The notes: generated from the sequence alone by a model not told the origin. A DNA stretch of 64,000 nt from Dictyostelium discoideum (GCA_000004695.1 CM000150.2:96001-160000); one strand, 5' to 3'. Shown: positions 2,601 to 56,615, counted from the first letter of the stretch. Numbers and translations: made by a program.

Positions 2601-2858
2601 ATATGATAATATAAACACCGTCCAATAGCTCGTTAATGGATATAATTCTTTCGTGGAACGTTTTAATGTGCGGGTGTTTCCGCGCCAATGACGGCTAGCT
2701 GGTGGTCGCTTTTTGTAATAACAAACAAGATTGAACAGAGATATCATCATTAGCGATCAACTTAAATAAATAGTCGACAGTCTGGGGAGTAGTGGGCATT
2801 TCTGGATCGATAAGGTAAGCGTGACGATTATTTTAAATGGTTTCGCCTAAGCCCTTAA

Positions 2859-3108
2859 CTACTGTAGCAAAGCACGTTTGAAATATAAATTAAATACCAC
2901 AACTAGAACGTTAGGGTTACGTATAGCATACTCAATTAACCAGCGAGTTTTCCCAGTTTGACGTGAGCCACTGAAGCCAATTGTAAACAACTCTCGTAAA
3001 TGACATGCCTTAGTACCGCCAAGATTATTAGCAGCGCTACGCATTATTAATCGCAATACTTTTCTCAAGTTCTTGAACTATCGCATCATAATCAATTGTA
3101 GACGTCAT
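2859..3108 (-). pseudogene. Terminase-like P-loop ATPase gene fragment (Walker A GFSGSRQTGKT); frame broken relative to the paralog at 29994-30140
   Basis: SRQxGKT Walker-A motif of the type seen in phage large-terminase ATPases; RBS tgaggtaaaaaaatcATG; the paralog has an uninterrupted N-terminus MTSTTTIDYDAIEKSIAINNERSAANNLGGTKACQLRELFTIGLSGSR. Confidence 0.45.
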
Positions 3109-3120
3109 GATTTTTTTACC

Positions 3121-3288
3121 TCATTTATTTAAGTGGTTGTATGAACTCACAGGGTTATAGTCCTCATAAACAGGAAGTAGTAGACCAGGTGCATTAGGCA
3201 TTGTTATTAATACACGCTGCCCACGCACATAAGGTTGGTTGTTAACATATTTAAAATCAGTTGCCACATAGCCTTTTGGAATTTCCAT
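3121..3288 (-). CDS. Small phage-like gene (55 aa, MEIPKGYVATDFKYVNNQPYVRGQRVLITMPNAPGLL...); its stop overlaps the RBS of the downstream terminase-like gene
   Basis: RBS aagagga 9 nt upstream of ATG; conserved paralog at about 30158-30327. Confidence 0.5.
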   Translation of the reverse strand: MEIPKGYVATDFKYVNNQPYVRGQRVLITMPNAPGLLLPVYEDYNPVSSYNHLNK

Positions 3289-3549
3289 GGTAAACTAATC
3301 CTCTTAATAGGGGACCGATGGCGGGTTGACCGTCAGACTTCTACAACACCCAACCACGTAATATCGGAGTGCTTCTGTCATTGTTATTTTATTTTTAGAT
3401 GCTACGCGGTTGATTGTGGTTTACTTACACCAAAGTGTAAGCGTCGGTTATTTGCTGGCATACTTTCAGCCACGTCCCAAGTCTCCAATTCACCGCCTTC
3501 CTGCTATTAATGGTGCCTAATGACGGACATTCATCTCAAAATAAAACCA

Positions 3550-3585
3550 GGAGGGGTAAAACCCTCCTATATACTAATCTTACGG
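3550..3585. terminator. Bidirectional intrinsic terminator-like hairpin (AGGAGGGgtaaaaCCCTCCT flanked by A-run and T-run)
   Basis: GC stem with U-tract on both strands; repeated in the paralog at 30572-30606. Confidence 0.5.
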
Positions 3586-3889
3586 ACGTGGTGATATCGA
3601 ATACCACATTCTGTAATTTGGATCATGCTGGGTGTTATTTAATGTTTTGGCTATTGCTATAACCGACCGAGCTACTGTGTTTCCACAGAAATGACTCGAA
3701 CCATCGACCCACAGCGTGTATATAGTGAGCTGGTGGTTTAACCTCCCAAGGGCGGTGTTCGACTATTCGTCAAACGAAGACAAGCTTTTTAATTTAATTA
3801 AACTACCACACCATCTTCAATTTCGATTTTGGTAGAAGAGTTAGATTCAGTTAATCAATGTTGGCTTCGAAATCCAGAATCTCTTTTTC

Positions 3890-4078
3890 CTACTGCTTGA
3901 TTACTTTGCTGATCTCCAGCGGCTGATAACGTTCGATAACTGGATTAACGAACACAGCAATGGAAGCTTCATCGGCTTTCTTAGTACCGTTGAATGCTTC
4001 GGTGCGCGCGGTATTTTCACGCTGGTCAAAATTGGAGTTAGCGGTAACGTTGTGACGAGATATCGATTCGTAGTTCAC
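3890..4078 (-). CDS. Hypothetical phage-like protein (62 aa)
   Basis: ORF in the GC-rich island on the same strand as its neighbours; no recognisable motif. Confidence 0.3.
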   Translation of the reverse strand: MNYESISRHNVTANSNFDQRENTARTEAFNGTKKADEASIAVFVNPVIERYQPLEISKVIKQ

Positions 4079-4130
4079 TTTCTAAGCTTTGACAATATCG
4101 CGTTTCTCGCCTAATGCATTATGTGCATGT

Positions 4131-4761
4131 ACAGCAAAGAAAAATCCACATTTAAAGCAAATTTAAAGCAAAGTTGATTTAAATTGGATTTAAATTGAAT
4201 TTAAAGCCGGGTTTAAAAAATTCATTTTCAAGGTAATTTTTAAGATAATTTTAAGATATTTAAAAATGCCTTTAAAATTTATTTTAAAATAATTTTAAAG
4301 AGGATTTAAAGTTGATTTAAAGTAGATTTAAAGTGAATTAAAATTTCCTTTAAATATAAATTTAAGGTTTTTAATAAAAAACATCTAATTTTAGATCAAA
4401 AAAATGGGGATAAAATATTCTATCATTTTTAAATTATCATCAAAGCAATCAAATGGTGTAATGGTTGATGAGACTACCCTTTGATTGATGAGACTACCCT
4501 TTTGGTAAATTTTCAAAAATTTCAAAAAAAAATTTTATAAAATTTATCCGTTAAATAACGGCTTCGAACTCCGGACCTCGCTTTTAAAGCCATTAAAAAG
4601 CTAATTCCTAAGGTAATTATAAAGGTAATTTATAAGGTGGTTTTAAAGTAACCTTAAAAATTACCTTTAAAATTACCTTAAAAATTGCTTTTGTACAGGA
4701 CTTTAAATTCGCTTTAAATTAAATTTAAATTTGCTTTAAAGGTGGTTTTTCTTTCACTGTG
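4131..4761 (+). mobile_element. TIR hairpin element (B-type end ...A-type end; left terminus 2 bp short), inserted into the 3' end of a phage-like gene
   Basis: Termini ACAGCAAAGAAAAATCCAC ... GGTGGTTTTTCTTTCACTGTG; internal tRNA-like/hairpin core. Confidence 0.7.
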
Positions 4762-5026
4762 TAGTGTATTCTTTGCCAGCTACGGTAATAAGCGTACTAG
4801 CGTTGGACAATATCACTTTAGCAAGGATATCTTCACGCACACGAATGATATCTTGTAAACCATGGTAGTTTTCTTTGATCGCATCAGAAACCGCCCCAAC
4901 GGAATCATTGAAACCAGCTTCTTGGGCGAATTCATCAGTACCGCGAGTTAGTGAAATAAGCATCAGACCGTTGGACATGGATTTAACCGTGGCCAATGTA
5001 CGGGTAATTGAAATCTTAGTAGCCAT
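4754..5026 (-). CDS. Phage-like gene (MATKISITRTLATVKSMSNGLML...) truncated at its 3' end by the TIR element; the last codons read into the TIR
   Basis: RBS aaaggaaaaggaaatataATG; the ORF stop lies inside the CACTGTG terminus. Confidence 0.45.
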   Translation of the reverse strand: MATKISITRTLATVKSMSNGLMLISLTRGTDEFAQEAGFNDSVGAVSDAIKENYHGLQDIIRVREDILAKVILSNASTLITVAGKEYTTQ

Positions 5027-5157
5027 TATATTTCCTTTTCCTTTATACGTTATAGACAGAGTGCCGAACCCTGTTTTAGAGAACGGTAGAGGCTTTCACT
5101 CTTAGGCTTTCATCGATCCCCGTTCGTGACCGTTTAGCGATTTCTTTAGATCTTAAT

Positions 5158-5247
5158 TGGTAGAGAATTAGAGATTCGAACTCTAGGAGCGGTTTCCCGC
5201 CCGACGGTTTTTAAGACCGTTACCTTGAACCACTCGGACAATTCTCC
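5158..5247 (-). tRNA. Class-II tRNA-Leu (anticodon UAA), long variable arm, discriminator A73, genomically encoded CCA end
   Basis: Manual fold: acceptor GGAGAAT/ATTCTCT, anticodon stem ACGGT/ACCGT with loop CUUAAAA, T-arm TAGAG-TTCGAAT-CTCTA, 3' ACCA; close to the bacterial tRNA-Ser/Leu body GGAAGTGTGGCCGAGCGGTTGAAGG... Confidence 0.7.
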
Positions 5248-5336
5248 AATTGGGTGACACCCATTAGAATTTCACGTAGCTCTATAGCTATTACAGTCAA
5301 TACTAACACTTCACAAAAAGGCCTGGTTAACCCCTA

Positions 5337-6014
5337 CTGATTGAACTTAGGTTGTCTTAGAGTTCCTACCAGGAAAACTGCAACTGATATCATTGTTTGG
5401 TGATTACAAAAAAGACCAGTGTTATTGGCTGGTCTTTTTGAGTTATACGATACCGTTCTCTTTACGATAACGGAATATTTTTGATCTATCGATATTAAGC
5501 ATTTCTGCAATTACTTAATCGCTATTACCTCACCAAGCAGTTCGATAATCATGGCAATATGTTCTGGGTTAAGTTGTGTCTTTTGGCTTTTACTTAATGC
5601 TGATCTACCAACACAGCGAAGAAAAAACCACCTTTAAATTCGCTTTAAATTAAATTTAAATTTGCTTTAAAGTCCCGAATTAAAGCAATTTTAAAGGTAA
5701 TTTTAAAGCGAATTTAAAGGTGGTTTTTTCTTCGCTGTGTTGGTAGATCAGCATTAAGTAAAAGCCAAAAGACACAACTTAACCCAGAACATATTGCCAT
5801 GATTATCGAACTGCTTGGTGAGGTAATAGCGATTAAGTAATTGCAGAAATGCTTAATATCGATAGATCAAAAATATTCCGTTATCGTAAAGAGAACGGTA
5901 TCGTATAACTCAAAAAGACCAGCCAATAACACTGGTCTTTTTTGTAATCACCAAACAATGATATCAGTTGCAGTTTTCCTGGTAGGAACTCTAAGACAAC
6001 CTAAGTTCAATCAG
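5337..6014. repeat. Near-perfect ~275-bp-arm palindrome of phage-like sequence centred on a 128-bp mini TIR element
   Basis: 5337-5611 is the reverse complement of 5740-6014, read directly. Confidence 0.85.
5612..5739. mobile_element. Mini TIR element (internally deleted, two termini back to back) at the palindrome centre
   Basis: CACAGCGAAGAAAAAACCACCTTTAAA ... TTTAAAGGTGGTTTTTTCTTCGCTGTG. Confidence 0.7.
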
Positions 6015-6644
6015 TAAAACACTAAAAATTACCTTTAAAATTACCTTTAAAATTACCTTTTTAATCGCTTTAAAAGCGAGGTCCTGAGTTCGAAGCCGTT
6101 ATTTAACGGATAAATTTTTTAAAATTTTTTTTTTTAATTTTTCAAAAATTACCAAAAGGGATTCGATCCCCCGACCCTCTATCAAAGGGTAGTCTCATCA
6201 ACCATTACACCATTTGATTGCTTTGATGAAAATTTAAAAATGATAGAATATTTTATCCCCATTTTTTTGTTCTAAAATTAGATCTTTTTTATTAAAAACC
6301 TTAAATTTATGTTTAAAGGAAATTTAAATTCACTTTAAATCTACTTTAAATCTACTTTAAATCCTATTTAAAATTAATTTAAAATAAATTTTAAAGGTAT
6401 TTTTAAATATCATAAAAATTATCTTAAAAATTACCTTAAAAATCACCTTTAAAATCACCTTTAAAATCACCTTTATAAATTTATTTTAAAGCAAATTTTA
6501 AAGGCATTTTTAAATATCTTAAAAATTACCTTAAAAATTACCTTAAAAATGAATTTTTTAAACGCGGCTTTAAATTCAATTTAAATCCAATTTAAATCAA
6601 CTTTTCTTTAAATTTGCTTTAAAGGTGCATTTTTCTTTGCTGTG
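6015..6644 (-). mobile_element. TIR hairpin element, truncated on the palindrome side; B-type terminus at 6624-6644
   Basis: Internal modules and tRNA-like core in reverse orientation; terminus GGTGCATTTTTCTTTGCTGTG. Confidence 0.7.
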
Positions 6645-6693
6645 AAGAGATCCAGTTCTACCATTCTGGCGATGCTTGCTTGCCGATCAGTCA

Positions 6694-6810
6694 TTAACGA
6701 ATCTTCTTCAGTAACTGAGTACGAAGAATTGGATTAGCATCTCGCTTGGCTTTATCGGCCGCTGCAGTGCGTTTTGTACAGTTACCAAAATCAAAAGATT
6801 TACATGGCAT
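6694..6810 (-). CDS. Small basic protein (38 aa, MPCKSFDFGNCTKRTAAADKAKRDANPILRTQLLKKIR) with a strong GGAGG-type SD; paralog at 47855-47971
   Basis: Two copies about 90% identical, both with an RBS; hairpin after the stop in the 47972 copy. Confidence 0.5.
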   Translation of the reverse strand: MPCKSFDFGNCTKRTAAADKAKRDANPILRTQLLKKIR

Positions 6811-7054
6811 GACATCCCTCCATTGACTTAAAAGAAAAATAAGGGGATAACATGTGTTCTGGTCAAGCCATACCCTTAATGAGGGTGTTAATCTTCGTCA
6901 TAATAATTTTGATCTTTTGGAGTACTTGCATGCAGAGAGGTTATGGGGACCATCCCTACACATTATATCCGGTACTGTGTAAAACTTTACATATCAATAG
7001 ATCAAAAATAAGAGGATGTAGTACATCCCCTCTTTCAATTAAGGCAACATGACC

Positions 7055-7319
7055 CTAGTCAAGTAGCGCATTGTGTCACGTAATAGGGATACACGCCCGC
7101 GATTAAGATCAACAATACCGTAGTTCAAATGAATAGAATCGTTATATATACCTTCTGCGTTAAGCCTGAAGTTCAAACGCGAACGGAGCGTAGTATGAAC
7201 CTGACCTTCACTTCTGAAAATGTGTACTCGTTATCTAACGCCACATCAAAGGCAGGCCAACCTGTTAATGCTGTTGATCTTATCCCAATTACGTGAAACA
7301 ATGCGCTACTTGGCTAAGG
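7055..7319. repeat. ~30-bp inverted repeat (CAAGTAGCGCATTGTKTCACGTAAT) flanking about 200 bp in phage-like island C
   Basis: 7055-7084 is the reverse complement of 7288-7319. Confidence 0.5.
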
Positions 7320-7384
7320 TCATGGTGGCCAATACAACTCCACCTGTAAACCTTTCACCAACCACTTGTCATTGACTAATAACT

Positions 7385-7706: not shown

Positions 7707-8222
7707 TTAATAATTTAATTTATTAAATTACATTTATATTAAATATATATAAATATATTATGAATAAAATTTATTTATATTATCATATATATATATATAT
7801 TATGAATAACATTTATTTATTTGAATTTCCCAAATATTTAAGATAATTTTTTAGAATGTTCTAGAACATTCGAAGAATAAAAAATTTTCGAAAGAAAAGT
7901 AAAAATTTCGAACCGGCACAATGACGCGATCATTGCGCAAGGTCGAAAAACTGAAAAATTCCGAACCGACACTATGCACAAAGTTGTGAAGGGTCGAAAA
8001 CTCTTATTTTTTTGAGTTTTGCTAAATTTTTAAGAAAATAAAAACGTATAAATAGTGGCACTAAAAACTAAAACAATTTGATTTATTTTATTTGGGAATT
8101 CCTCCTATATATATTTAAGATACACACACACACAAATTTTATACAAATAATTATTTCTCTTTATTAATTTTTAATATTATTATTTTTTCTCATATTATAA
8201 TTTTAGATATCAACAATAAAAT

Positions 8223-9230
8223 ATGTCTACCACTGTTAATAATAATGATGCCTCTAGTAGTAGTACCTCTGCCTCTAATAGCGCTGAATCCTTTGATTTA
8301 AGAATGAAATCAATGGAGGATCAAATCAACAACCTTTCCTTAGCCTTTACAAGATTCATGAAAGAACCTATGTTCTCTTCTAATACCAACTCACGTAGCC
8401 AACCTTCTCATGATAACTCTGACACCGAGAATGAACAAAGTGAAGATGAATCAAGTAACAATGTCGATGTTCCAACCGATTATCAATTATCCGATACCTT
8501 ACTTGGTCAGTACAAACATATGGTAAACAATAAAGGTTTACTCGTCGAAGAAGAATGTATCCTCAAGAAAGATGAGATATCCGAATTGAATAAAGTATTC
8601 AACTTTCCATCTAACTTCCAAGTGAATGTCGCTCCATTCGGTACACCTGAAGGTATTACTGTATCATCCAACGTCAAGAACAATGATACTGATTTGTTGA
8701 TTGTCGAAAAGCGAATCAACGATAGCTTGAAACCTTTGCTTCTCATGTCAAGTATGTTATCATCTGATAGCTCTAATGTCGATGTAGAACTTATTAGTTA
8801 CTTAACTCAGAGTGCAATCGTCTTAGCCGTTAACGCTCAAGCATCGCTTAGTCGTGTCCGTCGTAACAACATCGCTAAAGAAATCTATGGTTCTGAAGTA
8901 CTCTTACCAATTAAGATCAAGGATACACCAAAGATGTTTGATGAAACTGAAACTGAACGTGTAAGAAAGCTAGCCAAGTCAATCAGAAAGAACAACGAAG
9001 CAAAACAATCATTGTTAAAATTGAATTATCATTCCAAGCCCAATGTCAAGAAATCAGTTAACTCAAGTGGTAATAACACTACAGGAAACAGTAGTAATAG
9101 TAAATCCAGTAGTGGGAGTAATGGCCGATCTAACAACTTCAATGGATCACCAAGTAATGTTGCATCAGGTAGCAACAATACCAAGTCTGCCAACGGTACC
9201 AACAACCGTTTTCAGAAGAACAAGAAGTAA
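8223..9230 (+). CDS. DIRS ORF1 (gag-like, 335 aa)
   Basis: Full-length ORF conserved across copies. Confidence 0.8.
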   Translation: MSTTVNNNDASSSSTSASNSAESFDLRMKSMEDQINNLSLAFTRFMKEPMFSSNTNSRSQPSHDNSDTENEQSEDESSNNVDVPTDYQLSDTLLGQYKHMVNNKGLLVEEECILKKDEISELNKVFNFPSNFQVNVAPFGTPEGITVSSNVKNNDTDLLIVEKRINDSLKPLLLMSSMLSSDSSNVDVELISYLTQSAIVLAVNAQASLSRVRRNNIAKEIYGSEVLLPIKIKDTPKMFDETETERVRKLAKSIRKNNEAKQSLLKLNYHSKPNVKKSVNSSGNNTTGNSSNSKSSSGSNGRSNNFNGSPSNVASGSNNTKSANGTNNRFQKNKK

Positions 9231-12144
9231 ACTTACCAGTAGGTGGACGTCTGTTCCACCACAAACAAGTTTGGAAAGAATTGGGTCTTCCAAACTTTTG
9301 TCAAGAGGTCGTAAATGGATTAAAAGTCCATCTACTTCCAAACTTCAAGCCGATGCCAAACCCAATTCCGATTTCAATTCCAGAGGGTCCAAAATCAGAT
9401 TGCATCACAAAGGAAGTACAAGACTTGTTATTAGACGATGCCATCGAACAAGTACTTCCAAACCGTTATTCAAAGCGCGTTTTTTACTCCAACGTGTTTA
9501 CGGTTCCAAAACCTGGAACGAATCTACATCGTCCAGTTCTCGATTTAAAAAGGTTAAACACTTACATCAACAACCAATCATTCAAGATGGAAGGAATCAA
9601 GAATCTACCATCAATGGTCAAACAAGGTTATTACATGGTAAAACTCGATATCAAGAAAGCTTACCTCCACGTTTTAGTAGATCCGCAATACAGAGACTTA
9701 TTTCGCTTCGTGTGGAAAGGTTCGCACTACCGTTGGAAAACAATGCCGTTCGGGTTATCGACAGCTCCTCGTATCTTTACAATGTTGTTAAGACCTGTAC
9801 TTCGAATGTTGAGAGATATCAACGTATCCGTCATCGCATACTTGGACGATCTATTAATCGTCGGTTCAACAAAAGAAGAATGTTTATCCAACCTCAAAAA
9901 GACAATGGACTTACTTGTCAAACTAGGTTTCAAGTTAAATCTAGAAAAGAGTGTTCTCGAACCAACTCAATCAATTACATTTCTCGGATTACAAATCGAT
10001 TCGGTATCAATGAAGCTTCTTGTTCCCAAAGAAAAGAAGAAAAGTGTCATCAAGGAAATAAGAAACTTTTTAAAACTAGATTGTTGCTCCCCAAGAAAGC
10101 TTGCTGGTTTAAAAGGAAAGCTAATCGCACTGAAAGATGCAGTCATCCCTTTCAGACTTTACACTCGTCGAACAAACAAGTTTCACTCTCAGTGTCTGAC
10201 TCTAGCCAATGGAGATTGGGATCAATCATTCCCCATTCCTCAAGAGGTCAAGTCAGAGATTTCACATTGGTTAACAGTTCTAAACCAATGGAATGGAAAA
10301 GAAATCAGTCTGTTTCCAAGTTACGACTATGTTCTTACAACCGATGCCTCGGAATCAGGTGCAGGTGCCACACTCAAGAAAGGAAACAAGGTAATCAAAA
10401 CTTGGTCATTCCAGTGGTCAACAACTCAATCAAACATGTCGTCAAATCGTCGAGAAATGCTCGCGCTGCTAATGGCCTATCAAGCGCTATGTCAGAAACT
10501 GAACAACTGCAAGCTGAAGATCCAAACCGACAATACTACCACTCTCTCATACATCAATCGCCAGGGTGGTCAGATACAAGATCTCTCAGTTCTGTTCGAA
10601 CAACTTTGGAAACAATGCCTCAAGAAGAAAGTGAACTTGATTGGAGAGCATATTCCAGGATTCTTCAATGTAAAAGCCGACCACCTCAGTCGTCTTTCAG
10701 AGATGAATCACAAATCATCGACCAGAGTAATCAAGAGTTACATCTGGCAACTGAAGAAGGAAGTGTTCAATCGCATCCAACTTCAATTCGGTCAAATACA
10801 GATGGATCTGTTCGCATCTCACCTCAACCATCAAACGAACAACTACTCAACAATAAGAATGAATGCACTCAACCTCGATTGGAGTCAATGGAAGCAATGT
10901 CTGGCCTTTCCACCACCCATTCTTTTGCCTTCTATCCTGGAGAAGATGAACTCATCCAGTTCGAAGAAGGTTTCTATAATACTGATCTTCCCAATCTGGA
11001 GATCAGCAACTTGGTATCCGATGATTCAAGCACAAGTTCCTCGTCATCATCGTCACATGTTTCCTCAAGTACTGGGAACATTCCAAGAAGTATTGACCAA
11101 ACAATCAGTAGAGTCGATACCAATCCAGATTCAACAACGTTGGAAGCTGGGGATTATTCAACTTTCCAATCTCATGTAATGTCCTTCGCTCGTACAACAA
11201 ATACAAAAACAGCTGAGCTGTTAATGAAGTCATGGGAACCTTCAACTCTCAAAGTATATAGCTCCAGTTATACAAGATTCCGCAATTTCTGTACTTTGAA
11301 CTCTTTGAATCCAGCAAACATTACCTTAGTTGTTTTCATGGATTATCTTACACATCTATTCAAACACAAACCTCCGTTAGCTTTCTCAACTATTAACGGT
11401 CATCGATCTATGTTGAATCAGTTGTTACTCCTTAGGAATCAAACTGATATTGTTAATGATCCATTCATTACAAGAATTATGACTGGTATTCACAAGTTGC
11501 GTCCTTCATCTGCAAAGTATAAAGAGATATGGGATGCAAATCAAGTATTCAAGCACTTATCTACTATCAAAGTCATCCCCAAGTACACATACACTGCGCT
11601 ATTAAACAAGACACTTGTACTCTGTAAAATGTTTGGTTTAGCAAGATCATCAGACTTGGTGAAGTGGTCGTTCAAAGGTCTCATTATTACTCCTGACTCA
11701 ATCAAAGGTCCCGTTATTAATGCTAAAGAACAAAGAAGTGGTATTGTTTCAATCTTAGAATTAACATCGTTAGATGATACTAACTCTCAAGTGTGCCCTG
11801 TTCGCCACCTTGCAACATACCTTAGAGCATCTAAAGGAAGAAGAAAGCCCCATTCGGGTGACTCTGTCTTTATTAAGAATGAAGGTGAACCGCTCCAAGT
11901 TAATGATATTAATTCAATTGTACTATCAACACTCTCAAAGTCAGGTATTGATATTGTCAAGTTCAAATCTCACTCTACCCGTTCCGCTATGGCTTCTCTG
12001 CTGTTGTCCAATAACGTTCCGTTCCACGTTGTCAAAAAGATGGGTCGTTGGAAATCAAACGATACTGTAGATACCTTCTACGATAAAAGAATCATTGGTG
12101 AAAAATCTGGTGGTTTCTTAAATACTGTCGTCCAAATTTCATAA
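9043..12144 (+). CDS. DIRS long overlapping ORF; the C-terminal ~320 aa is a tyrosine recombinase (R..HxxR..Y), the N-terminal ~700 codons overlap the RT ORF in another frame
   Basis: RSSDL, KSHSTRSAMAS and GRWKSNDTVDTFY catalytic-residue context; the long overlap is kept open in every near-full-length copy. Confidence 0.8.
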   Translation: MSRNQLTQVVITLQETVVIVNPVVGVMADLTTSMDHQVMLHQVATIPSLPTVPTTVFRRTRSKLTSRWTSVPPQTSLERIGSSKLLSRGRKWIKSPSTSKLQADAKPNSDFNSRGSKIRLHHKGSTRLVIRRCHRTSTSKPLFKARFLLQRVYGSKTWNESTSSSSRFKKVKHLHQQPIIQDGRNQESTINGQTRLLHGKTRYQESLPPRFSRSAIQRLISLRVERFALPLENNAVRVIDSSSYLYNVVKTCTSNVERYQRIRHRILGRSINRRFNKRRMFIQPQKDNGLTCQTRFQVKSRKECSRTNSINYISRITNRFGINEASCSQRKEEKCHQGNKKLFKTRLLLPKKACWFKRKANRTERCSHPFQTLHSSNKQVSLSVSDSSQWRLGSIIPHSSRGQVRDFTLVNSSKPMEWKRNQSVSKLRLCSYNRCLGIRCRCHTQERKQGNQNLVIPVVNNSIKHVVKSSRNARAANGLSSAMSETEQLQAEDPNRQYYHSLIHQSPGWSDTRSLSSVRTTLETMPQEESELDWRAYSRILQCKSRPPQSSFRDESQIIDQSNQELHLATEEGSVQSHPTSIRSNTDGSVRISPQPSNEQLLNNKNECTQPRLESMEAMSGLSTTHSFAFYPGEDELIQFEEGFYNTDLPNLEISNLVSDDSSTSSSSSSSHVSSSTGNIPRSIDQTISRVDTNPDSTTLEAGDYSTFQSHVMSFARTTNTKTAELLMKSWEPSTLKVYSSSYTRFRNFCTLNSLNPANITLVVFMDYLTHLFKHKPPLAFSTINGHRSMLNQLLLLRNQTDIVNDPFITRIMTGIHKLRPSSAKYKEIWDANQVFKHLSTIKVIPKYTYTALLNKTLVLCKMFGLARSSDLVKWSFKGLIITPDSIKGPVINAKEQRSGIVSILELTSLDDTNSQVCPVRHLATYLRASKGRRKPHSGDSVFIKNEGEPLQVNDINSIVLSTLSKSGIDIVKFKSHSTRSAMASLLLSNNVPFHVVKKMGRWKSNDTVDTFYDKRIIGEKSGGFLNTVVQIS
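9281..11179 (+). CDS. DIRS reverse transcriptase / RNase H ORF (632 aa)
   Basis: YLDDLLIVG (YxDD), RNase H TDASESGAGA, NVKADHLSR motif. Confidence 0.85.
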   Translation: MGLPNFCQEVVNGLKVHLLPNFKPMPNPIPISIPEGPKSDCITKEVQDLLLDDAIEQVLPNRYSKRVFYSNVFTVPKPGTNLHRPVLDLKRLNTYINNQSFKMEGIKNLPSMVKQGYYMVKLDIKKAYLHVLVDPQYRDLFRFVWKGSHYRWKTMPFGLSTAPRIFTMLLRPVLRMLRDINVSVIAYLDDLLIVGSTKEECLSNLKKTMDLLVKLGFKLNLEKSVLEPTQSITFLGLQIDSVSMKLLVPKEKKKSVIKEIRNFLKLDCCSPRKLAGLKGKLIALKDAVIPFRLYTRRTNKFHSQCLTLANGDWDQSFPIPQEVKSEISHWLTVLNQWNGKEISLFPSYDYVLTTDASESGAGATLKKGNKVIKTWSFQWSTTQSNMSSNRREMLALLMAYQALCQKLNNCKLKIQTDNTTTLSYINRQGGQIQDLSVLFEQLWKQCLKKKVNLIGEHIPGFFNVKADHLSRLSEMNHKSSTRVIKSYIWQLKKEVFNRIQLQFGQIQMDLFASHLNHQTNNYSTIRMNALNLDWSQWKQCLAFPPPILLPSILEKMNSSSSKKVSIILIFPIWRSATWYPMIQAQVPRHHRHMFPQVLGTFQEVLTKQSVESIPIQIQQRWKLGIIQLSNLM

Positions 12145-21612: not shown

Positions 21613-21613
21613 G

Positions 21614-23614: not shown

Positions 23615-23617
23615 CTT

Positions 23618-25342: not shown

Positions 25343-25432
25343 TGGGTAATCATTATCCTCAAGGTGATGATATTGTGAAATTTTATAATTTTTATTTAAA
25401 ATCTTTGACCTGGACTCATCACCTTCATCGAG

Positions 25433-46775: not shown

Positions 46776-47768
46776 TTAATCTAAAAAAAAAACAAAAAAA
46801 GTATTATTTTAGATTTCTTCAACTTCATCAATAATATCAATGCTTTCAAAACCAATCACCAGTTCTTTTAAAATAAATTGATACTACAATTAAATAATAG
46901 CTGGTAAGTTAATATAATTTTTTTTTAAAAAAAAAAAAAATTAAAAAAAAAAAAAAAATAAATAATAATAATAAAATAAAATAGATAGACTAATTTGAAA
47001 AATAATAATTATATTTTAGGTTACCTTTCTTATTATACCAACAACCACTTCTTTTCAATCAAATTGATACTTCACTTATATAATAACTGGTAAGTCAATA
47101 TAATTTTTTTTTTTTAAAAAAAAAATAATAATATAAAATAAAGAGATTAATATAATTTAAACAATTATATTTTAGGTTGTTTCTTCTTTTATTAGAACCT
47201 GTAAAGTAAATGCTTTTGGTACAAATTATAATGGAAATAAAGTTCTGCTTTTCAAATTAGTCAATTATAAATGTTGTATTACCATTAAATAAAAAAAATT
47301 TCTGATTTCAAATACTTTTACTTTTTAATTAATTCTTTTTTTTTTTTTTTTTTTTTTAAATTTATTTTAAATTATTATTATAAAATGTTATTTTTAATTT
47401 TTATTTTTAAGTATTCTTATTAAGTGAACTTTATAATTACCCTTAATAATTACCCTTATTAATTATAATTAATAATTCCACTTAATAGTTATACTTAATA
47501 ATTATACTTAATAATTTTAATTATTAATTATATTTTATTATTATACTTAATAATTATGCTTAATAAATATACTTTTTAATTATACTTAATAAATATACTT
47601 AATAAATATACTTTTTAATTATACTTATTAATTATACTTAATAAATATACTTAATAATTATACTTAATAATTATACTTAATAAATATACTTATTAAGTAT
47701 ACTTAATAATAGTACTATTTACGTTCCTACTTTAAAGATGCTTTTAAGTATTTTTTTTCGCCCCTGTG
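46776..47768 (-). mobile_element. Second TIR family, right arm (tandem ~200-bp units with GTAAGT...TTTTAG intron-like boundaries, satellite 47400-47700, terminus ending CCCCTGTG at 47768)
   Basis: Reverse complement of the 17461-18188 arm. Confidence 0.65.
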
Positions 47769-47854
47769 GAGATTAACACCCTCATTTAGGGGATGTCTTG
47801 ACCAGAACACAGGTTATCCCCTTATTTTTTCTTTTAATTCAATGGAGGAATGTC

Positions 47855-47971
47855 ATGCCATGTAAACCTTTTGATTTTGGTAACAGGACAAAACGCACTG
47901 CAGCGGTCGATAAAGCCAAGCGAGTTGCTAATCCAATTCGTCGTACTCAGTTACTGAAGAAGATTCGTTAA
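47855..47971 (+). CDS. Small basic protein (38 aa, MPCKPFDFGNRTKRTAAVDKAKRVANPIRRTQLLKKIR), paralog of 6694-6810
   Basis: SD aatGGAGGaatgtcATG; hairpin TGACTgatcggaAAGTCA after the stop. Confidence 0.5.
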   Translation: MPCKPFDFGNRTKRTAAVDKAKRVANPIRRTQLLKKIR

Positions 47972-48740
47972 TGACTGATCGGAAAGTCAGCATCGCTAGA
48001 ATGGTAGATTGTCGTTGAGATGCAGGGCGTAAAGCCCAGCTATTGGCAAAGATGTAAGCGGCTTAAGAGCCCCTAATTAGTATCCGCGGTCACGGCCGCA
48101 CATCCTAGCCTATGGGCTCACACCAATGCGTAATATGGTAGCAAAAATCATGTCAGATGAAGACATCCCAGATCATGATACCCGTACATGGTATTGTCTC
48201 CAGTATCCAATAACCTCAATCTGCCATCAAACCAAATTATAATATTTAAAAAAAAAAATTTGAATCTCAAAAATCATTTTCTAGATCTGAAAAAACCCAC
48301 TTAAATTATTATTAAATTACTATTTTTTTTAATAATTTAGTAAATAGATATTTTAAGTCATAAATTAAGCGATAAAATCTATTTTTTTGGTTAACCAGCA
48401 TAGTCTAGGTGTTTATCTATTTAATATGTTTTTTGTGGATAATAAAGCATATTTCAATCACTAATGATATTTATTAAATTTATTAAATTTGTTTATTTTT
48501 TTTTTCCGTGATGGAAAATGGTAAGACCATTAGTTCGTTCTGCATTGCCCATTACATCACCACTTCTTACATGTCAGCGTCTGGTGAAGTTACGCTGGGT
48601 GATGCAGCCGATAAAGAGACACAGTTCGCTATTAACTCGACTGGATCGATTAATATGTAAGCGCCACGTTTTGTTCTGAAGGGTATTCGGGATGAGAGAA
48701 CACCTGTTTTTGAATGCTCATGAATTATCCAGCATAGTAT

Positions 48741-48989
48741 GTGGAATTCTATAGACCCTATTACCAGAAATACGACCACGGAAGATCTTGGTTCGCAACG
48801 CGTTTGCTGAAGTGGTTCACACACAACTATCCAACAGCGGTGATTGATGTGGTTAAGTCCGTGGCCCTGGTTCTTGTTAAACATCGCGATTTGATTGGTA
48901 ACCCATCATTCATTGACACAGAGTGGTTTTTGGATGGTGAGTGTTTGCGTCATCTTAATAACGCACTGGTCATGGAAAACGAACCGGTT
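48741..48989 (+). CDS. Phage-like gene truncated by insertion of DIRS copy l
   Basis: ORF 48741-49025 reads from GC-rich sequence into the ITR. Confidence 0.35.
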
Positions 48990-51900: not shown

Positions 51901-52782
51901 CTAAAGAACAAAGAAGTGGTGTTGTTTCAATATTAGAATTAACTTCGTTAGATGATACAAACTCTCAAGTGTGCCCTGTTCGCCACCTTGCAACATACCT
52001 TAGAGCCTCTAAAGGAAGAAGAAAGCCCCATTCGGGTGACCCTGTCTTTATTAAGAATGAGGGTGAACCGCTCCAAGTTAATGATATTAACTCAATTGTA
52101 CTATCAACGCTCTCAAAGTCAGGCATTGATATTGTCAAGTTCAAATCTCACTCTACCCGTTCCGCTATGGCTTCTCTGCTGTTGTCCAATAACGTTCCGT
52201 TCCACGTTGTCAAGAAGATGGGTCGTTGGAAATCAAACGATACTGTAGATTCCTTCTACGATAAAAGAATCATTGGTGAAAAATCTGGTGGTTTCTTAAA
52301 TACTGTCGTCCAAATTTCATAATATATATATATATATGATAATATAAATTAAAAATTTAATTTATTAAATTATATTTTATATTAAATATATATATATATA
52401 TTAGTCCCATCCCACCCGCCCTTAGTCGGAATTCCATAAATCAAATTGTTTTAGTTTTTATTGCCACTATTTATACGTTTTTATTTTCTTAAAAATTTCG
52501 CAAAACTCAAAAAAATAAGTGTTTTCGACCCTTCACAACTTTGTGCATAGTTTCGGTTCAGAATTTTTCAGTTTTTCGACCTTGTGCAATGATCGCGTCA
52601 TTGTGCCGGTTCGAAATTTTTACTTTTCTTTCGAAAATTTTTTTTATTCTTCGAATGTTCTAGAACATTCTAAAAAATTATCTTAAATATTTGGGAAATT
52701 CAAATAAATAAATGTTATTCATAATATATATATATATATTTAATATAAAATATAATTTAATAAATTAAATTTGTAATTAAAC
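48990..52782 (+). mobile_element. DIRS copy l: both ITRs; internal deletion fusing ORF1 in frame to RT (637-aa ORF 49444-51357); recombinase ORF 49890-52322 intact
   Basis: LLVEE|GIKNLPSMVKQ junction compared with copy b. Confidence 0.85.
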
Positions 52783-53313
52783 AGAACCCTGAGACGTATG
52801 TGGTCTACCAGAAGGTATCAAATGTAGCAAATCGCGTGCTTTAGAACAATCGCATGTATTCGGTGTGTTATGTATTCCAACGTACCATACCCGTAATCAT
52901 TCGTTTGGTTTCAAATATGTGTTGGTATCGAAGAACCTACAGCGTCTTCAACCAGGTGAGCACCTTGCGGCGGGGGACAATTTTTGCACACTCCCCTAAT
53001 TTGACAGAGGGCGGTGACTAAATACGGGTGTGAAACTAACGTGTGTTTCATGTCACTACCAGAAGTCGAACAGGATGGAATGATTGCTACGGAATCATTC
53101 GTTAATGCCATGGCGTGTGATAAGATGGAGAGTCGTTTATTGCAATGGGGTGAGAACAATGTACTTGTTAAACAACTACAAACCTTATCCAGTGATCGGG
53201 GAACAAATTCGGGATGATGGTTTTTTATTCGCAATGCGCAATATCGAATCTGATGTTGGTCTGGTCAACATGACTGCGAAAGCATTGATGGAAGTGGATG
53301 TCATCTTGGATAA

Positions 53314-53835
53314 ATGCGTGTACGGCGACCTAGTGCAACGGTAATCAACATTACCATCAAGTCCAACCGCCTGCGTACAGGTCGTTCAGAAGTTCAGTTC
53401 TATGATAAACAATCCGACCCCTATGAAAAAGCAGACCGTGACTTTCCTATCAATCTGCGTGGTGTGTATGAAACATTATTGAGTCGTCACCCACATACCT
53501 TAATGTTAGAGCCTAGTCTGAACACTTTGGTCAATAATGCCATATCTGATACCGGTGGTTTGGATCGTCGAATGAATGCCCAAACTGGTGCAATCTTGGC
53601 GATGGATAAAGGTGTTCAGATCTATAACAAGTTCCTATCGGCTACTGGCGTGCTTAGATCTCTTTTGTTAAATGCATTGTGGCAGGTGTGCGTTTCAAGA
53701 TCTCTGACAGTCATGAGGGTAAAGGTGTTATCGTTCATGTCTTTAAAGATGAAGATGCACCGACATGGCGTGCGTACAGATGTCATCGTGGATAACGCCT
53801 CTATCACTAAAACTCTATTGAACAGTTTGAGTTGA
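53314..53835 (+). CDS. Phage-like hypothetical protein (173 aa); upstream frames 53014-53344 look like frameshifted parts of the same gene
   Basis: ORF track; overlapping stop/start with the next gene. Confidence 0.35.
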   Translation: MRVRRPSATVINITIKSNRLRTGRSEVQFYDKQSDPYEKADRDFPINLRGVYETLLSRHPHTLMLEPSLNTLVNNAISDTGGLDRRMNAQTGAILAMDKGVQIYNKFLSATGVLRSLLLNALWQVCVSRSLTVMRVKVLSFMSLKMKMHRHGVRTDVIVDNASITKTLLNSLS

Positions 53836-54452
53836 TGTCCAACAGTCCTATCTATCAGTCCAAAGCAAACCGTGATCATCATGTGAGCTGGGTGATTGAA
53901 CATGAAGTAGAGCTGCTAGCGTTAACTGATCGCTTGTATTATGGGGCAGAGCAGATTCTTCGCATTAAGAAGAACCATGACTTCCCAACATATCCTGCTC
54001 GTTATCGAGCACCTTATGGGAGGTTTGTGATAACTCGTGATCCAGTAATGATTGTACCAGTGTATATCATCCTGTTGGAAAAGATGAGGGAATATTTGGT
54101 TTCCTATGCAGTGCCTAAGTTAATGCACTTCGGTACTTTATCTATTATTACTCAAGTAGACAAGTACGCCCTCCCTTGGCGTAATGTACCAACTCGTTTG
54201 GCTGGTGAGTCAGACATTCGTCTGTTCTGGCGGCTGGTACACAAACCGTCTATTATCATTGCCAATACACCGGCAATGCAGAAAGCAGTAGGTAAGTTAT
54301 TGCGTCATGAGAATCCAATGCGTATTGACAATTTGATGGATGAAAGTGTATCTCCACTAGGTCGTAATCGACCAGTGCAGATGTATAAACACATGCAAGC
54401 TTGTCGTGGTATTCGCTTTGAACGTCAATTGTTAACTGAAGGGGCCGCTTAA
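53835..54452 (+). CDS. Phage-like hypothetical protein (about 205 aa)
   Basis: ATG at 53835 overlaps the TGA of the upstream ORF. Confidence 0.4.
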   Translation: MSNSPIYQSKANRDHHVSWVIEHEVELLALTDRLYYGAEQILRIKKNHDFPTYPARYRAPYGRFVITRDPVMIVPVYIILLEKMREYLVSYAVPKLMHFGTLSIITQVDKYALPWRNVPTRLAGESDIRLFWRLVHKPSIIIANTPAMQKAVGKLLRHENPMRIDNLMDESVSPLGRNRPVQMYKHMQACRGIRFERQLLTEGAA

Positions 54453-54474
54453 AGCAGATCGGCAAGATTTGCTA

Positions 54475-55059
54475 ATGAATGGAGAGCAGATCTGGTCGTT
54501 AGATCCTCAGTGTAATAATCCTAAAGTTCAGGTTCTCGCTGAGGATAAAACTTTTGAGATGTTGGTGCGTCCTCTGATAGCCAGCTGGCCAATTCAGAAG
54601 TTCCAAGAAGGGATGGCTCTGGGTAAGCGGCATTTCTTAACAGGGTTCCGCATTTCAAACAAAGGTATCCGTAACATACTGACCGAAGGGTATCGTGACT
54701 ACGATATGATCATTGTACAACTAATGGGCACTGATCTGACCGGTGGGTTCATCGATGTAGTGAAATTTAACTCATTACAAGCCCGTACCATTAACCATAT
54801 CAACAACGCCTTTGTTGCAAGAATTCCTGAATATGTCACTACTGCAAGTATGGTTGACTATTTAGAGATTCTATTATTCGTCAAGTTCGAGCAGGTCTGG
54901 TTTAGTTCCAGAAATCTATCGGCTAGGCTTATAAGAAAGGACTGGGCCATATCAAAAACCCTGATAAATTTCCAAAGAATCAAATCGCTGAGGATATCAA
55001 ACAAGGCGGTGTTTCCGATGGCCAGACTGCTCAGGTGTTTATCTCATGTGGTTACCTAA
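54475..55059 (+). CDS. Phage-like hypothetical protein (about 194 aa)
   Basis: ORF track; ATG 23 bp after the previous stop. Confidence 0.35.
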   Translation: MNGEQIWSLDPQCNNPKVQVLAEDKTFEMLVRPLIASWPIQKFQEGMALGKRHFLTGFRISNKGIRNILTEGYRDYDMIIVQLMGTDLTGGFIDVVKFNSLQARTINHINNAFVARIPEYVTTASMVDYLEILLFVKFEQVWFSSRNLSARLIRKDWAISKTLINFQRIKSLRISNKAVFPMARLLRCLSHVVT

Positions 55060-55990
55060 CCGACCATAACTCCAGGATCTTTGTTCGTCCTGTTACGGTC
55101 AAGGTATTGGTAGCTTCTATGAAGCCTTTGTTGAATCACATTCTGCTACTGAGGCCATGATCTTTACCAAGAAACCATTGGAGGATTCAGAATGGTTTAA
55201 CCGTAAGTTACAATTGGTCGGTTAGGCCATACAGCGCGTCCATCTTGGTGAGGATTGAGGTACTCAAATTACAGTACCGGTAATAATGCGTCCAGGCTGG
55301 TCCGGTGTAATGGCGGGTAAGTATTACGTAGACGACAGTGGTCAGATGTAAGCCATTCATGAGAAAGATGAAGGTAAACTGCTGCGTATAAGGTCACTAA
55401 TGTATTGTCAGCATAAATATCGTTCGGGTGTTTATGAGCGCTGTTATGGTAAGTTGGCTATGTCGATCCCGTATTTCAACGTACTGGGCAAGATAGGGAA
55501 AAACGAAGCCATTGCTGGGCACGTGTCCGCAACAGAATTTGATGCTGCTTTATAACAGAAGATGTTGTCCACTAAACACCTGGATACTTCTTCTACGGTG
55601 GATCCGTTTATCATTCATCGTGAAGATGCAATTTATATAACGTGTGGTATTCGTGATAATACTGCTGGTTTAAACCTACGACTGAAAGGGCAGAATGTAG
55701 CCAGATGACGTAGGGATTGTGCTTGATCAGTTCTTAGAGTTACTTAACCGACTTCTACAGGTGAATATCGTTCATGCTGAAATGATTCTGTACTCGGTAA
55801 TGGTGCGTGACCCAAGCAAGTTGGATCATTGCTTACCGCGCGCTAACGAACAACGGCAGTTTAGTTCTTATCACGAATGTATCGAATTCCCCAGTCTTTT
55901 GGTGCAGTTGCTGTATCAAGAGCAAGCGGATGTTATGATGAAACCCATGACGTTCTTAATTGATAACCGTCAGTCACATCGGCAGATAGA

Positions 55991-56083
55991 TTATATTACC
56001 CATCTGTTCAAGCACAAACCTCCGTTAGCCTTCTCAACAATTAACGGTCATCGATCAATGTTGAATCAGTTGTTACTCCTTAG
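55991..56083 (+). mobile_element. ~93-bp fragment of the DIRS recombinase ORF (…HLFKHKPPLAFSTINGHRSMLNQLLLL…) embedded in phage-like island E
   Basis: Near-identity to DIRS sequence; shares the ttcaaGcac variant with the adjacent copy l. Confidence 0.7.
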
Positions 56084-56110
56084 TATCTTTGCAGACTAAG
56101 GGGTAGGGCG

Positions 56111-56506
56111 ATGCGCACTACGGCAACGCTTATCATTGGTAATCATGGATTTACGGTTAAAGACTACAATGATGAGTTCTACAGTAAGGCAAGGGCGTAC
56201 TGCGCACGTTTCGTTAAATACCGGATTGAATCTAAGGTCGTCCAAGGACGGAGATCTTTTGTCAAGGTACCAGATCGTGTATTCGGCTCAGCTTCGAAGG
56301 ACCGTAAAGAGCTACACATTAACTGTTTAGCTGAATTTAAACAATTTATGTTGAATAGTGGTTGGAACCCTGAACGGTTCAAAGAAATCACCAGGGAATT
56401 ACCTGAGGGACGAGATGTCAATTCCAATGACCACCAGGTTGCAGTACCAGTTAGAGAAAGATCCTTCTGGTATCACGACCCGAATCAATACATTGCAAAC
56501 GGGTAA
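56111..56506 (+). CDS. Phage-like hypothetical protein (131 aa)
   Basis: ORF track. Confidence 0.35.
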   Translation: MRTTATLIIGNHGFTVKDYNDEFYSKARAYCARFVKYRIESKVVQGRRSFVKVPDRVFGSASKDRKELHINCLAEFKQFMLNSGWNPERFKEITRELPEGRDVNSNDHQVAVPVRERSFWYHDPNQYIANG

Positions 56507-56615
56507 AGGAAAGACATTCTATGCCATATACAACATGTTCAAACTGCAGAAGCTCACTGGCATTATGTTAATGCCGAAGTACATCACGACTTGGCATACT
56601 GGCTTACATGACTTT

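Follow-up and report, generated by a model that had tools for sequence, protein, structure and literature searches.

Foreign DNA that has settled in nuclei and decays there as junk is familiar from NUMTs and NUPTs, from Wolbachia-to-insect nuclear transfers, including WO prophage genes, and from endogenous viral elements. The locus described here, in a 64-kb window (the whole stretch of DNA analysed) of Dictyostelium discoideum AX4 chromosome 1, shares with these cases the joining to the chromosome, the lack of function, the neutral decay and the colonisation by host transposons, but its donor would be a lytic virus of bacteria, neither infecting the eukaryote nor being an organelle or endosymbiont, and its site is a centromeric retrotransposon cluster. 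The reading put forward, with a probability of about 0.88, is that jumbo-phage DNA was joined into the DIRS-1-rich centromere of chromosome 1, decayed without function, was duplicated and was cut by transposons; DNA of a virus of bacteria would in this way have become a stable part of a eukaryotic chromosome. No earlier jumbo-phage 'fossil' in a eukaryotic chromosome is known to us, and a search for an earlier report of these particular fossils found none.

The closest phage systems are the Agricanvirus-type jumbo phages (Erwinia phages Ea35-70, RAY, AH06 and Simmy50) and Salmonella phage vB_SalM_SA002 (SA002 below), which share with the window the order nvRNAP beta-type subunit 1, subunit 2 and SF2 helicase, as well as a hypervariable block (MGA_204/205/206 = gp213/217/219) near which they too have a type II tRNA. 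Identity per segment amounts to 66-67% at the nucleotide and ≈ 50-80% at the amino acid level, but the window copy is no phage genome: ≈ 11 kb of fragmented genes are left, all of them disrupted, and the GC content is lower (43% versus 47% in the homologous SA002 region). SA002 and AH06, for their part, are without a counterpart of the tail-fibre-like gene that the window carries between gp218 and gp219. Chromosome 1 centromere regions at the same place have been published; that paper reports no coding capacity, GC difference or origin for them, whereas jumbo-phage pseudogenes are described here, and the published regions may not be exactly these islands.

The setting is the DIRS-1 centromeric cluster of chromosome 1. 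The annotated genes DDB_G0267292 and DDB_G0267330 are each exactly equal to an open reading frame of the window, and DDB_G0267332 matches with two of its three exons at 100% identity on island 5, the third reaching 94% across splice boundaries. DIRS-1 itself is recognised by its length of ≈ 4.8 kb, its inverted terminal repeats, the Pfam domains Phage_integrase and RVT_1, and ORF1, which is DDB_G0267292; the full copy at 7773-12596 recurs with 100% identity in another D. discoideum assembly. Masking of the window with this full copy set the limits of seven islands:

2615-4129, minus strand: island 1, distal part of tract A copy 1
4763-5614, minus strand: island 2, proximal part of tract A copy 1
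6647-7373, minus strand: island 3, in tract A copy 1, sequence upstream of the MGA_204-like gene
29928-31113, minus strand: island 4, distal part of tract A copy 2
40755-42267, minus strand: island 5, proximal part of tract A copy 2
47770-48987, plus strand: island 6, beginning of the SA002 MGA_204-like gene, with its ATG at 48126, preceded by its upstream region; AT-rich repeats adjoin it on the left, a DIRS-1 terminus (48988) on the right
52779-56615: island 7, tract B

The initial annotation had recognised the same seven segments, flanked and in places interrupted by DIRS and TIR-element termini, and its ends fall within ≈ 15 bp of those obtained by masking, except that island 2 is real but had been closed 278 bp too early, at 5336 instead of 5614. 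DIRS termini coincide with island ends, and TIR-element termini are present as described. The islands had further been credited with twice the GC of their surroundings; at 38-43% they do stand out from the AT-rich DDT-like and satellite DNA (17-23%), but the doubling is true of these AT-rich parts only, because the DIRS-1 copies that flank most islands have 38-42% GC themselves. The seven islands are not seven separate pieces: 5 and 4 form one tract, 1 and 2 with 3 a second, and 6 and 7 are the remainder.

Homology search placed all islands in one type of jumbo phage, and by these alignments all seven are phage-derived, at a level far beyond chance. Island 7 gave blastn matches of 66-67% nucleotide identity over 60-71% of its length (E down to 3e-91) and tblastn matches with E down to 1e-131. 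Its relatives are Agricanvirus-like nucleus-forming jumbo phages (Erwinia phages Ea35-70, RAY and AH06; Salmonella phage SA002): 21 jumbo-phage records match at 66-67% nucleotide identity across nvRNAP beta, beta' and helicase, whose order they share, one 206-aa open reading frame is matched by 175 jumbo-phage records, and the top protein identity is 60%, to Ea35-70-type phages. The split beta/beta' arrangement of the multisubunit nvRNAP was recovered with SA002 MGA_257/258 (tblastn, E 1e-28 to 1e-131). Islands 1, 2, 4 and 6 show collinear matches to SA002 MGA_204/205/206 and AH06 gp217/219. The collinear matches lie at 213.6-219.0 kb and 173.4-177.0 kb of SA002 and at 170.7-172.5 kb of AH06, with conserved gene order, and on this comparison islands 1-6 are assigned to one hypervariable region of the same phage type, ≈ 36 kb upstream of the island 7 equivalent in SA002. 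Islands 5 and 4 together match P0123, a 453-aa jumbo-phage protein (E 1e-52) whose gene sits on a 118-kb phage-like contig; jumbo phages of Erwinia and Serratia encode partial homologues of it, one of which carries the annotation tail fibre. For parts of islands 3, 5 and 6 the databases gave no match, and their assignment to phage follows solely from their contiguity with sequence that did match.

From the closest relatives, the donor is inferred to belong to the Agricanvirus / nucleus-forming, Chimalliviridae type. The chimallin and PhuZ tubulin genes lie outside the phage parts retained in the window; AH06 encodes a tubulin/FtsZ-like protein, and RAY is a chimallin-encoding nucleus-forming phage (PMC10299810). 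Among GenBank phages, IMG/VR and JGI metagenomes no donor phage closer than ≈ 60% amino acid identity was found, so that the donor lineage is placed only approximately.

Gene transfers from bacteria to Dictyostelium are known from the genome literature, and this precedent speaks for an indirect arrival, in which the phage DNA would have come as part of a longer stretch of bacterial chromosome or plasmid, e.g., from a symbiont or prey with phage remnants. Such a route is very unlikely, as no gene of a bacterial chromosome came to light, all islands with matches map to jumbo-phage genomes, and a tblastn comparison of the whole window with SA002 (E 1e-3) gave matches confined to the islands. Furthermore, phages of this type are, to our knowledge, strictly lytic and not found as prophages. 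Capture of jumbo-phage DNA as such is therefore preferred. The only tyrosine-recombinase matches in the window are those of DIRS-1.

The state of the phage genes is best seen in tract B:

52779-55985, plus strand: RNAP subunit pseudogenes, DIRS-1 terminus at 52778
52779-54425, plus strand: nvRNAP beta-type subunit pseudogene (SA002 MGA_257 aa ≈ 94-701), at least three frame changes
54463-55979, plus strand: second RNAP subunit (MGA_258 aa 7-423 and 555-647), two frame changes and a 393-bp deletion
55986-56083, plus strand: internal DIRS-1 fragment, 98 bp (DIRS positions 3566-3663, 92% identity)
56084-56615, plus strand: SF2 helicase remnants (MGA_259 aa 1-104 and 124-148, then MGA_260 aa 331-364)

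At least six frame changes and two large deletions have accumulated in 3.8 kb. One of the frameshifts, at 53833 within the single nvRNAP beta gene, had been read as an overlapping stop/start (TGATG), but there is no gene junction at this position. The DIRS-1 fragment replaces ≈ 29 bp between the stop of RNAP subunit 2 and the helicase start, and resembles filler DNA or what is left of an insertion; the helicase has lost ≈ 1 kb between its MGA_259-like and MGA_260-like parts and is truncated by a DDT-like TIR-element terminus at 56616. Island differences from SA002 at codon positions 1/2/3 number 50/45/119, 28/17/53 and 34/26/67, and this third-position excess indicates that the genes evolved as coding genes before arrival. 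In their present form the phage genes are dead: they carry frameshifts and stops and have lost 0.4 and 1 kb by deletion, and nothing resembling a functional prophage or active phage was found, since every matched gene carries such a lesion and only ≈ 11 kb is left.

Tract A is represented twice. Copy 1, in islands 1-3, contains the following features:

3077-2862, minus strand: P-loop (GSRQTGKT) pseudogene, homologue of AH06 gp219 / SA002 MGA_206 (island 1)
3288-3121, minus strand: 55-aa small open reading frame (island 1)
3569-3548, minus strand: terminator-like hairpin (island 1)
3641 to ≈ 3570, minus strand: last ≈ 20 codons of the tail-fibre-like gene (island 1)
4129 to ≈ 3810, minus strand: C-terminal part of the gp217/MGA_205-like gene (island 1)
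5026-4763, minus strand: N-terminal 95 codons of the gp217/MGA_205-like gene (phrog_1491 'tail fiber') (island 2)
5247-5158, minus strand: tRNA-Leu(UAA) with encoded CCA, ending ACCA (Rfam, 50.7 bits)
5404-5440: bidirectional terminator hairpin (-13 kcal/mol, z -4.9)
5615-5741: mini TIR element, 127 bp
5742-6016: inverted copy of phage 5335-5609, 100% identical

Several bacterial-type signals of the initial annotation are borne out, namely the tRNA with encoded CCA, the intrinsic terminator hairpins (5404-5440 and 3569-3548) and Shine-Dalgarno-like motifs (GGAG, GAGG or GGGG) 6-10 nt 5' of several homology-supported starts. The motif GSRQTGKT is also present (open reading frame 2859-3068), but what had been taken for a terminase-like Walker A belongs to the homologue of AH06 gp219 / SA002 MGA_206, a small hypothetical protein (phrog_2586). 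These misread details (terminase, TGATG, GC contrast with DIRS) have no effect on the conclusion. Island 1 adjoins a DIRS-1 terminus at 2614/2615, and the limits of island 3 are the terminus of a TIR element (6646) and a breakpoint internal to DIRS (7374); within island 3, 6657-6894 repeats 48008-47770 in inverted form at 93% identity, and the remainder is without database match. The gp217-like gene contains in-frame stops.

Copy 2 occupies islands 4 and 5:

30140-29937, minus strand: codons 1-73 of the gp219/MGA_206-like gene (island 4)
30328-30152, minus strand: 58-aa small open reading frame (island 4)
31117-30619, minus strand: C-terminal half of the 453-aa tail-fibre-like gene (P0123 aa 255-453) (island 4)
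41519-40766, minus strand: N-terminal half of the tail-fibre-like gene (P0123 aa 1-250), two frameshifts (island 5)

Upstream of the tail-fibre-like gene, island 5 holds ≈ 750 bp in which AH06 gp218 is weakly matched. On this island lies DDB_G0267332, a spliced AX4 gene model whose 'introns' skip the frameshifts. This model and the tRNA-Leu(UAA) are the two candidates for domestication of some phage sequence: the tRNA is structurally intact (50.7 bits) and reads UUA, a very common codon in the AT-rich Dictyostelium genome. Domestication is nonetheless extremely unlikely: the three pieces that the 'introns' of DDB_G0267332 join are frame-shifted parts of the tail-fibre-like pseudogene, none of the protein genes is intact, and the locus lies within a DIRS cluster. 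Decay of the phage DNA as functionless sequence remains the favoured description.

The segment 29938-30674 is a diverged copy of 2902-3641, with 89% identity when gaps are counted and 93% at aligned sites. The copies differ by 51 substitutions in 719 positions, with no third-position excess (3/6/2 and 2/0/4 at codon positions 1/2/3), and by seven indel runs, mostly not multiples of 3. It is conceivable, if unlikely, that several independent integrations of related phage DNAs, or a phage concatemer, gave the two copies with no duplication in the centromere. The DIRS junctions of the copies do differ, at 2615 and at a point 290 bp further in, and so does the internal structure, copy 1 being without gp218-like sequence and most of the tail-fibre-like gene. 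Yet the between-copy differences, with frameshifting indels and without third-position bias, are what is expected from neutral decay after arrival and not from divergence of two phages under selection; a later duplication would leave the same picture as a concatemer or as two molecules of one phage. A duplication within the centromere is accordingly retained as the preferred origin of the two copies.

Two insertions interrupt phage genes:

4130-4762: DDT-like TIR DNA transposon, 633 bp, with family termini CACAGCGAAGAAAAAACC, inside the gp217-like gene
31114-40754: nested DIRS-1 block, 9.6 kb, made up of a full copy and two partial ones, each outer end being an element terminus

The TIR termini CACAGCGAAGAAAAAACCACC are shared by 12 sites, and no target-site duplication was seen at 4129/4763; the family name DDT, from PMC2665215, is applied here by likeness. 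Excision of 4130-4762 in silico gives a single frame aligned to AH06 gp217 aa 1-197 (E 3e-33), and excision of the DIRS-1 block, which splits the tail-fibre-like gene, gives a tblastn alignment to P0123 aa 114-288 that crosses the junction. Host mobile elements hence sit within foreign genes, with phage sequence continuous on both sides; phage DNA was physically integrated, became pseudogenes and received transposons after its arrival, in support of the earlier proposal of integrated phage DNA later shredded by eukaryotic transposons.

The chromosome 1 centromere of the AX4 reference was manually reconstructed from Sanger reads (PMC2665215). Contaminating phage clones or reads might have been stitched into it, and the mini TIR element forms, together with the inverted copy 5742-6016 and phage 5335-5609, a perfect palindrome (5335-6016) that resembles a possible assembler product. 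Such an artefact, the chimeric assembly named at the outset as the refuting alternative, has next to no probability. A Dictyostelium TIR element and a DIRS block lie inside phage genes whose reading frames run on to either side of them, tract B includes a 98-bp DIRS fragment, the two tract A copies are 7-11% apart, and free phage would not have at least six frameshifts in its RNA polymerase. It has, moreover, already been largely refuted by Logan short-read contigs from at least eight other runs, which contain the DIRS/phage junctions of island 7 and constitute the independent junction support; exact-ORF look-ups for the junctions of the other islands gave no match. The contig concerned, identical in eight samples, spans 52733-56030 with both island 7 DIRS junctions at 98.9% identity, and differs from the window by SNPs, 4- and 9-bp indels and a 7-bp inversion, which mark it as a diverged allele or paralogue and not a product of the same reads.

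A history consistent with genuine integration can be outlined. DNA of a lytic, nucleus-forming-type jumbo phage, related to Agricanvirus (Erwinia phages Ea35-70, RAY and AH06) and Salmonella phage SA002, would have entered the nucleus of a D. discoideum ancestor, probably upon phagocytosis of phage-infected enterobacteria, the food of the amoeba, and may have been joined non-homologously at a chromosome break in the DIRS-1-rich centromeric region. Without function, it would have decayed neutrally by frameshifts, stops and deletions of 0.4-1 kb; partial duplication and inversion within the centromere would have given the two tract A copies, 89-93% identical, and later DIRS-1 and DDT-like TIR insertions would have cut up the phage DNA. 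One original block or several is a matter of inference. A tentative version, to which somewhat less than even odds are given, posits a single block of at least 45 kb (the equivalents of SA002 173-219 kb), captured from phage-infected prey and integrated into the centromere, whose eroded and duplicated fragments would now segregate in natural strains. If true, it would be the first jumbo-phage 'fossil' in a eukaryotic chromosome, as far as known, and would suggest that DIRS centromeres are sinks for foreign DNA. Between islands 6 and 7, which share one orientation, there is only a single DIRS copy, itself internally deleted, as would fit a block that was once continuous and then lost a large internal part.

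The window as a whole has a GC content of 32%, with stretches of 17–23% GC alternating with stretches of 38–43% GC. The GC-richer DNA consists mostly of DIRS-1 copies, many full or partial, which share 93–98% identity and whose ORFs encode reverse transcriptase and tyrosine-recombinase domains, and the rest of the window is of three kinds, namely the remnant of a Ty3-type LTR retrotransposon, an AT-rich TIR transposon family, and AT-rich tandem repeats. Once DIRS-1 was masked, the GC-rich non-DIRS DNA was exactly that of the seven islands delineated in the initial annotation:

2615-4129, island 1 (tract A, copy 1)
4763-5614, island 2 (tract A, copy 1)
6647-7373, island 3 (with tract A, copy 1)
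7773-12596, complete DIRS-1 element, 4.8 kb
20896-27617, minus strand, Ty3-type LTR retrotransposon remnant with RT, RNase H, integrase zinc-binding and integrase core domains
29928-31113, island 4 (tract A, copy 2)
40755-42267, island 5 (tract A, copy 2)
47770-48987, island 6
52779-56615, island 7 (tract B)

With DIRS-1 masked, the island ends proposed earlier proved accurate to within ~15 bp, with the exception of island 2, which extends to 5614, with a perfect inverted copy coming after it. The seven segments are present but make up fewer, larger tracts, and the GC contrast originally described holds against the AT-rich elements but not against DIRS, which has equal GC. At a further centromere locus of D. 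discoideum, one whose DIRS copy is identical, island sequence is absent. The Ty3-type remnant, which we take to be probably Skipper or DGLT-A, has a pol region split into several ORFs (21614–25342). The AT-rich TIR family, with termini CACAGCGAAGAAAAAACCACC, probably corresponds to the 'DDT' elements of PMC2665215. Two AT-rich tandem-repeat arrays (17508–17880 and 47354–47721) match each other in both orientations at 75–89% identity, and island 6 is bordered on its left by one of the two. The ORF at 8223–9230 is identical to DDB_G0267292 at every residue, the minus-strand ORF at 39308–40312 is DDB_G0267330, and two of the three DDB_G0267332 exons on island 5 match at 100% identity, the third at 94% across splice boundaries. 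Each of these proteins belongs to D. discoideum AX4, which places the window within the DIRS-rich centromeric region of chromosome 1 of that strain.

Island 7 matches 21 jumbo-phage genomes at 66–67% nucleotide identity, including those of Erwinia phages AH06, Ea35-70, RAY, and Simmy50 and of Salmonella phage vB_SalM_SA002 (SA002, MN445183.1). The matches cover two genes for beta-type subunits of the non-virion RNA polymerase and the SF2 helicase next to them, with the phage gene order kept. The top protein identity, 60%, is to the Ea35-70 group; remoter protein matches lie in phiKZ-like phages of Pseudomonas, Serratia, Klebsiella, and others. No donor phage nearer than 60% amino-acid identity was found, nor did a 206-aa RNAP ORF used as query in IMG/VR and the JGI metagenomes yield one. 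A word-indexed protein search found solely a Logan protein, 99% identical, and missed the 60% identical phage homologues.

When all six-frame pieces of the window were compared with the whole SA002 genome and with 50 kb of AH06, the matches were confined to the islands. The matches of islands 1, 2, 4, and 6 fall in a single small neighbourhood, at 173.4–177.0 kb of SA002 (MGA_204, 205, and 206), ~36 kb upstream of the SA002 RNAP genes and equivalent to gp213, gp217, and gp219 of AH06. Several bacterial-type signals reported initially are borne out: Shine-Dalgarno-like motifs precede several homology-supported starts, Rho-independent terminator hairpins lie at 5404–5440 and 3569–3548, and the tRNA with encoded CCA is a type II tRNA-Leu(UAA) at 5158–5247 on the minus strand, the same neighbourhood of SA002 carrying a tRNA-Tyr. 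On the other hand, the ORF with the supposed terminase-like Walker A motif is a P-loop homologue of gp219/MGA_206 and no terminase, and the TGATG at 53833, taken for an overlapping stop/start, is a frameshift within RNAP subunit 1. Pfam found no domain in eight island ORFs or in the six SA002 and AH06 homologues, and PHROGs gave only two matches among the island ORFs, phrog_1491 'tail fiber' and phrog_2586. A non-coding stretch of ~100 bp, at 3443–3542 and again at 30473–30574, shares 76% nucleotide identity with SA002 176586–176686; it lies upstream of the MGA_206/gp219-like gene, exceeds the surrounding coding DNA in identity, and could represent a regulatory element or a small RNA of the phage.

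Islands 5 and 6 gave no blastn match to phages and the island 5 ORF no tblastn match; island 5 likewise had no phage match in PHROGs. An exhaustive HMMER search with island 5 led to a 453-aa protein (P0123) at 56% identity; the 118-kb phage-like contig that encodes it also carries thymidylate synthase, gyrase A, a phiKZ-type prohead protease domain, and an S74 tail-fibre chaperone domain. Partial homologues of P0123 occur in jumbo phages of Erwinia and Serratia, and one of these homologues carries a tail-fibre annotation. Residues 1–250 align with island 5 and residues 255–453 with island 4 on the same strand, so that these islands are two halves of one gene. The 118-kb contig was ruled out as donor, the P0123 gene being the sole gene it has in common with the window. 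Parts of islands 3, 5, and 6 had no match in the searches.

Six observations, on junctions with mobile elements, an independent short-read contig, and gene decay, agree that the phage DNA is integrated in the chromosome and is not contamination. The TIR element between islands 1 and 2 spans 4130–4762, limits set by the family consensus termini, and excising exactly these 633 bp in silico yields one reading frame that matches residues 1–197 of AH06 gp217 (E 3e-33), with in-frame stops. The DIRS block at 31114–40754 is nested: a full DIRS-1 copy and two partial ones make it up, and element termini mark both of its outer ends. With the block excised, the P0123 alignment (residues 114–288) continues straight over the junction. 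Most of the remaining island ends fall at a terminus of DIRS or of a TIR element, as had been noted from the outset and as would be expected for elements inserting into pre-existing phage DNA. A 98-bp internal DIRS-1 fragment (55986–56083; DIRS positions 3566–3663, 92% identity) lies precisely between the stop of RNAP subunit 2 and the start of the helicase, in place of ~29 bp of phage sequence, and looks like filler DNA taken up as a break was repaired or like all that is left of an insertion since deleted. Phage origin, chromosomal integration, pseudogenisation, and later transposon insertion are established, in line with the initial proposal of phage or bacterial DNA subsequently cut by eukaryotic transposons. 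The TIR family (termini CACAGCGAAGAAAAAACCACCTTTAAA, 12 termini) shows no target-site duplication at 4129/4130 and 4762/4763, the sole insertion for which the phage reading frame allows the empty site to be rebuilt. A TGTA or TA duplication was considered and dropped, since the consensus termini fall at 4130–4762 and exact excision restores the frame.

A Logan short-read contig, identical in 8 sequencing runs, spans 52733–56030 and contains both the left DIRS terminus and the right DIRS fragment of island 7. Between contig and window there are 17 substitutions, indels of 4 and 9 bp, and an inversion of 7 bp, which makes the contig a diverged allele or paralogue from other material. The inversion, at 54901–54907, reads TTTAGTT versus AACTAAA between complementary flanks (GG...CC) and is a small hairpin-loop inversion polymorphism. 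Exact-product look-ups for three island ORFs picked to cross junctions, and for DDB_G0267330, returned no record.

The phage genes are dead. RNAP subunit 1 has at least three frame changes and the tail-fibre-like gene two frameshifts; RNAP subunit 2 carries two frame changes and has a deletion of 393 bp, and the helicase carries one frame change and has lost ~1 kb. DDB_G0267332 (41041–41749, minus strand, 176 aa, 'hypothetical protein') is a spliced model with three exons. These exons are three frame-shifted pieces of the tail-fibre-like pseudogene, and the 'introns' merely skip the frameshifts, so that the gene model is almost certainly spurious; the phage origin explains this annotated 'gene' as an artefact.

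D. discoideum eats enterobacteria. It can be envisaged that phage DNA from infected prey reached the nucleus and was joined at a break by non-homologous repair; its survival in a centromeric transposon cluster would fit a region tolerant of insertions. The transfer of prokaryotic and viral DNA to eukaryotic nuclei is known mainly from organelles, endosymbionts, and viruses infecting the host itself. Compared with such known fossils of foreign DNA the event is of the same kind, but it is unusual in that a lytic jumbo phage was the donor and a centromere the site. With a lytic virus of bacteria as donor and a bacterivorous amoeba as recipient, the islands would offer a physical case of the 'you are what you eat' route, in which the transferred DNA was kept as neutral junk and not as a selected gene, within the reference genome of a major model organism. 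To our knowledge, genomes of the relevant jumbo phages became available only after 2009. Glockner and Heidel reported that ~14% of the D. discoideum centromere sequence could not be identified as transposon, recorded two tRNA genes in the chromosome 1 centromere, and described non-coding multiplied sequence of unknown origin in this region (PMC2665215). A full-text literature search returned no report linking Dictyostelium with jumbo-phage DNA or placing phage DNA in its centromeres.

The order of events can be read from the divergence. Between islands and SA002, differences concentrate at third codon positions (119/214, 53/98, and 67/127); most of this divergence therefore came about in phages, with the genes still under selection. 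Two copies of tract A exist (2902–3641 versus 29938–30674; 6657–6894 versus 48008–47770; 89–93% identity), and between them the substitutions have no third-position excess and the 7 indel runs are mostly not multiples of three, the pattern expected of neutral divergence after arrival. Copy 1 is without gp218-like sequence and most of the tail-fibre-like gene, while copy 2 is partly inverted, with the DIRS truncation at a different point. A common DIRS/phage junction of islands 1 and 4 was rejected as proof of co-duplication, as the junctions differ. The DIRS copies that split the islands are 95–98% identical to other copies and are therefore younger than the tract A duplication. Islands 6 and 7 share the same orientation, and all that lies between them is a single DIRS copy with an internal deletion. 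This arrangement would suit a larger phage block, formerly continuous, from which ~39 kb was lost, and other histories are possible. The phage pseudogenes, the nested DIRS and DDT insertions, and the duplicates at 89–93% identity provide datable markers for centromere history across Dictyostelium strains and species, and the islands supply a minimum age and diverged sequence for a jumbo-phage lineage without close sequenced relative.

A perfect palindrome occupies 5335–6016, with 275-bp arms (5335–5609 and 6016–5742) that are 100% identical. It may be an assembly artefact of the manually built centromere, or may have arisen very recently at a transposon by fold-back or inverted duplication; its centre is a 127-bp mini TIR element (5615–5741) built of two transposon ends.
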